In this document: piece by piece, positions 1,732 to 28,601 of the stretch
Position numbering within the stretch: the stretch's first letter is position 1
Layout of the letters: the number at the start of each line of letters is the position of its first letter
NCBI GenBank assembly: GCA_964407965.1
Contig: CAYOXN010000003.1
Location: forward strand, 1 to 30,194
Length of the DNA stretch: 30,194 bases
Reading direction: 5' to 3'
Source: an uncultured Candidatus Saccharibacteria bacterium
GTDB lineage: Bacteria; Patescibacteriota; Doudnabacteria; UBA920
Position numbers and translations under genes: made by a program
Notes under the pieces: generated by a model
What the model saw: only the letters and a program-made list of their open reading frames with translations
Told to the model about the DNA's origin: nothing
Databases searched by the model: none

Positions 1732-1767
1732 CATATAATTTTTTCACATATGTGAAAAAATTATATG
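1732..1767. repeat. Perfect palindrome, copy 1 (36 bp, CATATA-arm type)
   Basis: CATATAATTTTTTCACATATGTGAAAAAATTATATG equals its own reverse complement. Confidence 0.97.
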
Positions 1768-1776
1768 AATACCCAT

Positions 1777-1820
1777 AAAAAAATAGGGAAACGGGCCGGT
1801 AATAACCGACGCGTTTCCCT
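1777..1820 (-). terminator. Rho-independent terminator after tandem-Nudix gene
   Basis: AGGGAAACG...CGTTTCCCT stem with inner pairing, then ATTTTTTT on the minus strand, 28 nt after stop at 1849. Confidence 0.7.
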
Positions 1821-1848
1821 TACGCTATTCCTCTACCCCCTTCCGTTT

Positions 1849-3003
1849 TTACTTCCGCGGCAACTTGCGGAAAAATTCCGCCGCCTTCGGTACAATCTGT
1901 TCGCGATGGGATCGTACCGTATGAGACGACATGTCGTCTACCGGATACCAGTGGTCATCAGGCATGACATTCGGGGTTGCAATATAAATCTTACACTCGT
2001 ACCATCCCCTCGGATCGTCTGTAATATAAACGTCTCCCACAAACTCATAGTGGGTGGGGCATTTGAATTCGCGGTTAGTCAACCGCTCCAGGGCGGATCC
2101 TAGGCCTGCGTCAGATCGCCGCACACCCTGGCCCAAGCCTGCCACCTGGCCGGCGTAGAACTTGTCGTTCGCTGGCCGCGGTGGTAGACGAACTTCTAAC
2201 ACGTCCCCGTTCCACCGCAGGCAAACGCCCTCCACCGCAACATTTGTGCCGTGCGGTGTAAAGGCGTCATACATTACTGTCCCCATGGGCGACATGGGAT
2301 CCTTAAGGCTTAACGCCGCCGCAATCGCCGCTCGCGCTGCGTCCGCATTCACTGCATAGCCGAATTCGTCCCGAGGCTCCTCACCTAGTGCTACCCGCTG
2401 GAGGAACAGGCCGGCCTCATACAAAGCACGGTTCTGCATGTATGCTACACCGGCGGCAATTATTCTTTCCCGATGGAAATCTATGGTCTTTTCGGGTAGA
2501 CTGCCTATCGGGAACCAGTGTCCTTCCTGGGGCGGTGTTTTGGTAAACACCACCACGGGAGTACTGCATCCCCAACCTCTCGACTCCATGAAGTAGAATT
2601 CAGCTTGACGGAGCACGACAATGCTGTCGATTTCCGCTTTGAATTCTCGCTTTGCCACCCTTTCGGCCACATCTTCGAACTGCTCGCCTCGCCGGATGGC
2701 GCTCCCGGGACAATGGTACATGCCCGGATACGCCGTATCGTTGTCCAGCCGCCGGACAAGGAAAACTTCCATCTTGCCTTCGGCATTGGTGCGCAGCAAT
2801 ACGCACTCGCAGAACCTCTGTGGAACCAACCGCGATAGCTGGTCAAAAAGCGCTGTCCCGTACGGTTTCTCCGCAGAAATGACTTTTAAGACTACTGCCG
2901 CAATCTCGCGAATTAACCGCGAGGCTTGCTTTGTGACCGACACCGCCATTTTGTGCAAAAACATTCCAATGGCGGATAAAACCACTTTCGAAAATTCTCG
3001 CAT
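1849..3003 (-). CDS. Tandem (two-domain) Nudix-fold hydrolase, GDP-mannose mannosyl hydrolase-like
   Basis: Two internally homologous Nudix-like boxes: HCPGSAIRRGEQFEDVAERVAKREFK and AGLGQGVRRSDAGLGSALERLTNREFK. Start moved from 3060 to ATG 3003 because GGAGGT lies 8 nt upstream. Confidence 0.7.
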   Translation of the reverse strand: MREFSKVVLSAIGMFLHKMAVSVTKQASRLIREIAAVVLKVISAEKPYGTALFDQLSRLVPQRFCECVLLRTNAEGKMEVFLVRRLDNDTAYPGMYHCPGSAIRRGEQFEDVAERVAKREFKAEIDSIVVLRQAEFYFMESRGWGCSTPVVVFTKTPPQEGHWFPIGSLPEKTIDFHRERIIAAGVAYMQNRALYEAGLFLQRVALGEEPRDEFGYAVNADAARAAIAAALSLKDPMSPMGTVMYDAFTPHGTNVAVEGVCLRWNGDVLEVRLPPRPANDKFYAGQVAGLGQGVRRSDAGLGSALERLTNREFKCPTHYEFVGDVYITDDPRGWYECKIYIATPNVMPDDHWYPVDDMSSHTVRSHREQIVPKAAEFFRKLPRK

Positions 3004-3113
3004 TCCTCCCCACCTCCGGGGTATTTCTAACGTGCCTACAAAACTCCTACCTGGCCGCAAGGCGGAAATACTGCTTTCCAGGCGGTTTTGTAACTAACCT
3101 AAGTTAGCCAAAT

Positions 3114-3142
3114 ATTATACAACAAATCCCCACCCCTGACAA
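3114..3142 (-). promoter_or_regulatory. Putative sigma70 promoter
   Basis: TTGTCA-N17-TATAAT upstream of the Nudix gene. Confidence 0.7.
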
Positions 3143-28125: not shown

Positions 28126-28129
28126 AAAT

Positions 28130-28477
28130 TTAAAACCCTATACCATGGCGGAATGAATAAATTACGTACATTGCCAAAAATATAGCTAAGGATATCAAAG
28201 AAAAAATAATGCTTAAAATCAACAACCACCTTCGATAATTTCGGTTGATATAAGTAAAATAAACAATACTTAAAGCTCCTAATAACTGGACCAATAAAAC
28301 TACCAGCCAACTTACTGTACTTTTTCCTGTGGTTAAGAAATTCTCCCTAAACACTGGGCTGTCAATTTGTGAATTATATAGACTCTGCATCAAATTAACC
28401 AAAGGACTCCACAATATTTCAGGTATTATAAACATTCCCAAACCTACCCATAGCCATATTTTTTGTAATTTTGTCAT
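28130..28477 (-). CDS. Small membrane protein (about 3 TM), hypothetical
   Basis: 115 aa hydrophobic ORF; stop 4 nt before the lipase ATG. Confidence 0.75.
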   Translation of the reverse strand: MTKLQKIWLWVGLGMFIIPEILWSPLVNLMQSLYNSQIDSPVFRENFLTTGKSTVSWLVVLLVQLLGALSIVYFTYINRNYRRWLLILSIIFSLISLAIFLAMYVIYSFRHGIGF

Positions 28478-28505
28478 TTGTTTCTAAAAGTTAATATTTG
28501 CCTTA

Positions 28506-28533
28506 AATATAACACTTTTTCCTTAGTTGTCAA
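28506..28533 (-). promoter_or_regulatory. Putative sigma70 promoter
   Basis: TTGACA-N16-TATATT, 28 nt upstream of ATG 28477. Confidence 0.55.
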
Positions 28534-28567
28534 ATTGTAAATTTATTTGGTATACAATGAACCAAAA

Positions 28568-28601
28568 TTAGCATTTTTTCACATATGTGAAAAAATGCTA
28601 A
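28568..28601. repeat. Perfect palindrome, copy 6 (34 bp, TTAGC-arm type)
   Basis: TTAGCATTTTTTCACATATGTGAAAAAATGCTAA; the right flank continues GAATTAAA as in copy 4, while the left flank has diverged. Confidence 0.97.

Follow-up and report, generated by a model that had tools for sequence, protein, structure and literature searches.

Dispersed perfect palindromes as putative binding sites of a small PaaX-like protein in a Patescibacteria genome

The window analyzed here is a stretch of 30,194 nucleotides, contig 3 of the 1.12-Mb genome (135 contigs, 95% complete) of an uncultured Candidatus Saccharibacteria bacterium placed by GTDB in the Doudnabacteria. Within it lie six perfect palindromes with a common 24-bp core, and two of these bracket the gene of a small protein, termed here mini-PaaX. 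On balance we favor the interpretation that a dimeric mini-PaaX binds the palindromes as its cognate DNA sites, both beside its own gene and where one transcription unit borders on the next. This proposal is drawn from sequence comparison and structure prediction. The pairing of such proteins with palindromes of their own is observed repeatedly, both in paralogs and in relatives.

The palindrome family and the mini-PaaX protein

The core has six exact matches in the window (Table 1). No further copy with up to three mismatches is present in the window, and 100 shuffled controls gave none. Palindromes 2 to 6 are perfect and have no spacer, and palindromes 4 and 5 are identical, including a CCC flank. 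All six lie between open reading frames (ORFs), and no copy of the core is found inside the block of sugar and polysaccharide genes at about 4.1-22.3 kb. The preliminary description of this DNA had reported six perfect intergenic palindromes that avoid the sugar-biosynthesis genes, and the core search, shuffled controls and ORF comparison agree with it on each point. Each palindrome strand can be folded computationally into a hairpin of 18-20 bp, and from this folding cruciform formation is possible.

A scan of the whole genome for the core, suggested in the preliminary description as a check, gave 15 copies in 1.12 Mb, every one intergenic. Gaps of at least 50 bp make up only 13% of the genome, yet they contain 15 of the 15 copies. 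No sequence differing from the central 20-mer by 1-3 mismatches was found in the genome. Among 40 relatives, a 16-mer of the core was found only in the sister species G001 of the same genus (six copies), in G006 (two copies, plus one symmetric variant) and in G013 (one copy). The palindromes have no match in Rfam. A metagenome scan with the 20-mer was uninformative, giving seven matches of which at most one was palindromically extended and none was near a mini-PaaX gene.

The protein encoded between palindromes 4 and 5 matches the PaaX_M family (PF20803) with E = 5e-10 and 39.8 bits against a cut-off of 24. Its AlphaFold model, with a predicted local distance difference test (pLDDT) score of 81, shows a winged helix and, after it, a ferredoxin-like unit of the order beta-alpha-beta-beta-alpha-beta. 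The best match of the model in the PDB is Escherichia coli PaaX (8a39), followed by operator-bound regulators of the MarR/PadR type and by Cas2 proteins. Residues 27-107 form a helix-strand-helix-helix arrangement plus wing, and 219 columns of the model align with 8a39, although there is no match to the Pfam PaaX N-domain. At residues 34-61 there is a hydrophobic stretch, which the model assigns with low confidence to the opening helices of the winged helix; in the alignment with the short paralogs it falls opposite their N-terminus, which is less hydrophobic. Nothing follows the Cas2-like domain, and PaaX_C is absent. It has no match to TIGR02277, for which the cut-off is 264.5 bits and the paralogs reach 16-48, and domain scans of mini-PaaX revealed no HUH/Y1 or other strand-transfer domain and no ParB-type domain. 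Asp141, within the motif ADIPT, is invariant; 113 homologs were found, nearly all without a name. In 35 of 41 relatives the genome encodes 1-9 proteins of the PaaX_M family. Part of the mini-PaaX gene is covered by a contig from an RNA library among public runs, which is compatible with expression but not proof of it.

Our proposal is that the 15-copy family would be the sites cognate to this protein. The invariant core would be recognized by a dimer with two-fold symmetry, each winged helix contacting one half-site (TTTTTTCACAT). The two chains would be paired through the Cas2-type fold as in PaaX, where we take the Cas2-like part (PDB 8a39) to be a dimer interface rather than an enzyme. The target would be the duplex rather than the hairpin form of the palindrome. 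The placement of the sites is itself seen in the sequence: directly after intrinsic terminators, an estimated 75-100 bp before the next promoter, or between two converging terminators. The two sites that clamp the gene of the protein itself would provide self-control, and at neighboring transcription units the sites may act as operators or as insulators (roadblocks).

Mini-PaaX shares features with known regulators and differs from them in others. The phenylacetyl-CoA-responsive PaaX of E. coli and Pseudomonas (PDB 8a39, 3l09; TIGR02277) is the best match both in structure and in sequence family. It too has a winged helix followed by PaaX_M, and probably binds, likewise as a dimer, to a palindromic site. 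However, the mini-PaaX proteins lack PaaX_C and have 160-230 residues compared with about 310, no paa genes are nearby (no paa-type Pfam family was found among the window ORFs scanned), and the short imperfect box of PaaX contrasts with perfect palindromes of 34-50 bp. Moreover, copies of its own site stand on both sides of the mini-PaaX gene, a genome has many paralogs, each with a private site, and an Asp at the Cas2 catalytic position is kept. The fold also matches operator-bound MarR, PadR and PecS, and as with repressors of that type there is a site at the start region of the gene. In mini-PaaX, however, the dimer would form through the Cas2-type domain, the gene is followed by a second site, and the sites are invariant and dispersed, some of them without a promoter.

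Other familiar elements had been set aside in the preliminary description, and we concur. The palindromes do not fit CRISPR repeats, as there is no Cas1 in the genome and the copies are 0.7-20 kb apart with no array. They do not fit attC or Xer dif sites, being perfect and without polarity, and the sole tyrosine recombinase is encoded on a contig (C44) that has no copy of the core. Nor do they fit CRP/FNR operators, since the order TCACA-TA-TGTGA is the reverse of TGTGA-N6-TCACA.

Table 1. Positions of the palindromes, the mini-PaaX gene and two accessory genes in the window
Feature	Position	Strand	24-bp core	Description
Palindrome 1	1732-1767		1738-1761	36 bp, perfect; 18-bp arms, TATAAT-type
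Palindrome 2	3183-3222		3191-3214	40 bp, perfect; TAGCAT-type arms
Palindrome 3	4043-4082		4051-4074	40 bp, perfect; TATAAT-type arms
Palindrome 4	24559-24602		24569-24592	44 bp, perfect; 2-nt overlap with mini-PaaX stop codon
Palindrome 5	25271-25314		25281-25304	44 bp, perfect; ends 8 nt upstream of mini-PaaX ATG
Palindrome 6	28568-28601		28573-28596	34 bp, perfect
Mini-PaaX gene	24601-25263	minus		220 aa; winged helix and Cas2-like PaaX_M domain
Accessory gene between palindromes 1 and 2	1849-3060	minus		403 aa; weak NUDIX match
Accessory gene between palindromes 2 and 3	3277-3948	minus		223 aa; no Pfam match

Pairing of proteins and private palindromes

The genome has five PaaX_M genes, and four of these are bracketed by perfect palindromes with a core private to the paralog. 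At the closest, palindrome and stop codon overlap by 2 nt; at the farthest, 28 nt separate the palindrome from the start or stop. Orthologs of the window protein in three other genomes, with identities of 77%, 67% and 51%, are bracketed by the same core. In the sister species the ortholog of the paralog on contig C17 retains the core of that paralog, and the ortholog of the C2 paralog occupies the same slot between two CYTH genes with a changed core. The pairing extends further into the family. At 29 loci taken from 28 relatives, at least one long flanking palindrome was found in 12 and palindromes on both sides in seven; members of the roughly 161-aa subfamily within this set had none. Of the subfamily of roughly 220 aa another ten members were examined, with at least one palindrome in nine and one on both sides in six. 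Several of these keep the TTCACA/TGTGAA half-site with a different spacing, and the more distant members have cores other than that of the window. The cores of the other paralogs are also present as solo copies, 3-7 per genome.

Because the bracketing recurs in paralogs and relatives, the pairing of the protein with a private palindrome is well supported. The preliminary description had thought a link between the palindromes and the enclosed PaaX/Cas2-like gene probable, and the paralog-specific bracketing now makes a strong case for it at the level of sequence. Our literature search found no paper on PaaX in Patescibacteria, on PaaX together with Cas2 and winged helix, or on the pairing of mini-PaaX with palindromes.

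Two other arrangements involve the paralogs. Five of the seven sites of the C17 paralog, with the core GTTCGCAATTGCGAAC, separate successive members of a 5-kb array of related genes (C17:7991-12761; L093:3991-8761) that encodes three PEP-utilizer-domain proteins, a PPDK_N protein, an APH-like kinase and the paralog itself. This array of sites around its own gene looks like a local regulon. On contig C86 (56-443) a stretch of 390 bp contains a row of four long perfect palindromes, all different. Two of these are private to the C2 and C106 paralogs, and two have ACGGCCGT centers.

Placement and symmetry of the sites

Sites 1, 2 and 3 share the same arrangement. Reading along the minus strand, the stop codon of one gene is followed by a GC-rich terminator, the palindrome, a good sigma-70-like promoter and then the next gene. 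Site 1 has a terminator-like hairpin at about 1785-1830 on one side and a predicted promoter at 1709-1682 on the other. The corresponding elements are the terminator at 3264-3245 and the promoter-like site at 3142-3114 for site 2, and those at 4131-4109 and 4000-3972 for site 3. Site 6 also has the order terminator, palindrome, promoter; in this case a TTGACA-16-TATATT promoter-like site lies about 50 bp downstream, serving a pair of genes for proteins of 115 and 926 aa. If guessed start points are assumed, the palindrome centers would lie near -75, -86, -96 and -98. The two sites around the mini-PaaX gene are different. Site 5 abuts the start codon, and site 4 is flanked by the stop codon and by a bidirectional terminator-like hairpin (about 24500-24530) and therefore faces no promoter. 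Across the genome a strict terminator is found 39-59 bp from the palindrome center at 8 of the 15 sites. None of the 11 site-bearing regions is a gap between diverging genes, but this is not significant (P about 0.07-0.12). From these placements we conclude that the sites occupy gaps between transcription units, with no fixed position relative to a promoter.

The palindromes themselves are not typical intrinsic terminators. They have 3-4 GC pairs in 18-19, their tails are inconsistent, and separate canonical terminators are nearby. The possibility of a promoter inside the palindrome was considered and rejected. The arms are often of the form TAnnnT, and one copy contains TTGAGA-18-TATAAT, but the pattern is lost in the arms of G001 and G006 and there are good separate promoters downstream. 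Two further features were seen at relA/spoT. A run of short AAGATGATAA-like repeats lies between the palindrome and the start of relA/spoT on contig C37 (L079:4040-4130), and in G006 the palindrome is at the 3' end of the relA/spoT ortholog instead of upstream.

An alignment of 24 sites, drawn from four genomes, shows little or no variation over the inner 22 bp, and the outer arms vary in a symmetrical manner. In arm pairs 11-18 there are 44 cells that have changed on both sides, with three G-T and 12 unpaired. None of 500 shuffles reached the observed co-variation score, and slid controls fell to background. Since G-T pairs are nearly absent, the symmetry is probably maintained at the level of DNA and not of an RNA stem. 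TATAAT and TAGCAT arms coexist within the genome, and the arms are therefore unlikely to be read by a single cognate protein. Hairpin-templated correction of quasi-palindromes is an established process. Such correction, or else the copying of entire sites, would account for the pattern in the arms better than protein contacts.

The core family includes two doublets (L075:4196-4331 and L077:3867-4001), each comprising one TAGCAT-type and one TATAAT-type copy. Their centers are 80 and 79 bp apart and their spacers are unrelated. The arm types alternate in the same way at window sites 1, 2 and 3.

Alternative explanations and meaning

The positions of many sites are conserved. In the sister species, whose genome is 94% complete, all six sites are positionally orthologous to sites of this genome, corresponding to window sites 4, 5 and 6, a post-epimerase site, the site at a Y-family (dinB-like) polymerase gene and that upstream of relA/spoT. 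The orthologous proteins are only 58-92% identical, and the orthologous sites are therefore old and have been maintained. This is as expected if the palindromes are bound by mini-PaaX, but several other observations weigh against that explanation. For nine sites of this genome no counterpart was found in the sister species; several of the nine lie beside species-specific genes, and on this evidence they have arisen by copying. One difference between the species is the gap after a DsbA-like gene, with a site in this genome and none in the sister species. Three orthologous sites in the sister species all have TATCTT-type arms where this genome has TAGCAT, and so concerted a change between species suggests homogenization or copying. 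Three or four of the site-bearing regions lie between converging genes and terminators, with no promoter to control, and the neighbors (relA/spoT, a Y-family polymerase, DsbA-like, subtilase, LCAT-like and unknown proteins) have no functional theme. The sites are also all-or-none. Approximately 22 bp are invariant, equivalent to roughly 44 bits where roughly 17 are needed, and there are no weak copies, in which they are unlike the sites of ordinary regulons. Lastly, the 98%-complete G013 has a single 34-bp perfect palindrome with the same 20-bp core (L022:2867-2922), and neither PF20803 nor the window protein as query found a mini-PaaX in that genome. This orphan palindrome, the all-or-none conservation and the doublets with centers 79-80 bp apart do not fit well with any of the explanations that we have considered.

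The main rival, which we judge unlikely though deserving of serious attention, is that of a selfish repeat comparable to repetitive extragenic palindromes (REPs) and their REP-associated tyrosine transposases (RAYTs). In this explanation the hairpin repeats are copied, homogenized or maintained through the protein of the bracketed gene, the Cas2-type domain with its Asp at the catalytic position is a nuclease, and any regulation is secondary. The architecture matches well: one gene stands between copies of its cognate extragenic palindrome, further copies occur alone in intergenic gaps near terminators, there is one private repeat family for each gene lineage, and the stems co-vary. The all-or-none copies, the concerted arm changes, the additional copies beside species-specific genes, the invariance of Asp141 and the breaking of assemblies at the sites can all be counted in its favor. 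So can the presence in the same genome of a true RAYT-like gene with a second palindrome family, described below. Against this, mini-PaaX has no HUH/Y1 fold or other strand-transfer domain, and in PaaX the Cas2-like part is presumably not an enzyme at all. REP families run to hundreds of copies, whereas here there are 3-15, the core of the window having only 15. The mini-PaaX palindromes are perfect, and lack both a loop and a 5' tag of the GTAG type. All six sister-species sites have kept their positions over deep divergence, and neither polymorphism between empty and filled sites nor target duplication was seen. Two doublets, to be compared with the REPIN doublets of REP systems, are present in the core family.

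The RAYT-like gene (C30:6661-7398; L030:1251-1988) encodes a Y1_Tnp domain with the HUH- and Tyr-type motifs PNHFHF and YIHQNP. It is bracketed by two related palindromes of the second family, which has 10 dispersed copies with the core GGGCATCTTCTC-N-GAGAAGATGCCC, the core being fixed and the outer arms co-varying. The gene and its palindromes have the layout of classical REP/RAYT elements and are a candidate for a genuine REP/RAYT system in a genome of the Candidate Phyla Radiation (CPR). A second and weaker Y1_Tnp match in the genome is, like the strong one on C30, outside the mini-PaaX bracket.

A more elaborate version of the copying explanation seems to us doubtful. Here mini-PaaX and its private palindromes would be a second REP-like system, independent of an HUH transposase, in which the palindrome would be recognized, nicked through the retained acidic site, copied, homogenized and seeded at the borders of transcription units, so providing slots for the turnover of accessory genes.

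It is very unlikely that the palindromes are recombination sites, one of the possibilities raised in the preliminary description, and delimit exchangeable cassettes in the manner of integrons or pdif modules. Some local observations do suggest exchange. The genes between sites 1 and 3 are specific to this species. That for the 403-aa protein has a GC content of 55.7% compared with a genome mean of 45.5%, and its full-length form was not found in 25 genomes of the family, which contain only partial relatives; it was probably acquired recently. The C-terminal half of this protein matches a separate gene in another genus (G024). The 223-aa gene is in none of the 25 other family genomes. In the sister species the slot of the 403-aa gene is occupied by a different gene, followed by a site. 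A mini-PaaX cassette (C2:16196-17951; L026:630-2385) lies between two paralogous genes, CYTH-like as judged from sequence and of about 180 aa, in this genus only; it was not found in three other genera that have both genes, where the gap contains nothing, another ORF or small unrelated genes. However, a perfect palindrome has no polarity, the sole tyrosine recombinase is on another contig, and sites 4-6 with their genes are fully syntenic between the species. No palindromes were found beside the homolog of the 403-aa Nudix-like gene in another genus. In wastewater runs the public Logan contigs end or branch at the palindromes, and the loose ends are the flanks of other copies, so this is branching of the assembly graph and not excision. 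No junction with a single palindrome was found in them, and the suggestion of recombination or excision is not upheld. The broader idea that the palindromes organize accessory genes survives in part. It is consistent with the species-specific genes between sites 1-3 and with the absence of some sites from the sister species; on the other side, all six sister-species sites are orthologous in position, several of them beside conserved genes.

A role of the hairpins in RNA, as terminators, stabilizers of mRNA or sites for RNase III in untranslated regions, is highly improbable. The palindromes fold into 18-20 bp stems, a simple terminator scan flags them, and there are copies at gene ends. Yet the stems are AT-rich with no consistent T-run, GC-rich terminators adjoin them, G-T (G-U in RNA) is nearly absent from the co-varying pairs, Rfam gave no match, and such roles do not need an invariant core of 22 bp. 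Least probable of all are sites for chromosome organization of the parS, matS or NBS type bound by a structural protein: there are about 15 well-conserved palindromes, six within 30 kb, and the half-site GTGAAA resembles what we take to be the half-site of parS, but the center differs from parS, mini-PaaX has no ParB-type domain, and several paralogs each with a small set of sites around their own gene are unlike a single genome-wide system.

Members of the CPR/Patescibacteria have tiny genomes and few recognizable regulators, and to our knowledge almost nothing is known of how they control their genes. Many of the PaaX_M proteins counted in the relatives come with a readable DNA partner: their gene is bracketed by a long perfect palindrome, further copies of which lie close by. 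These pairs of protein and site are ready for study at the bench by binding assays, by analysis of the specificity code of a Cas2-fold dimer, and by reporters. They also offer a way to map regulons, or the dynamics of repeats, in organisms that cannot be grown. As judged from sequence, the layout of mini-PaaX and its palindromes is architecturally the same as that of REP/RAYT, but with an unrelated protein. If the sites prove to be copied by the protein, mini-PaaX and its palindromes would be a new system of repeat and partner besides REP/RAYT, and would provide a new function for the Cas2 fold.

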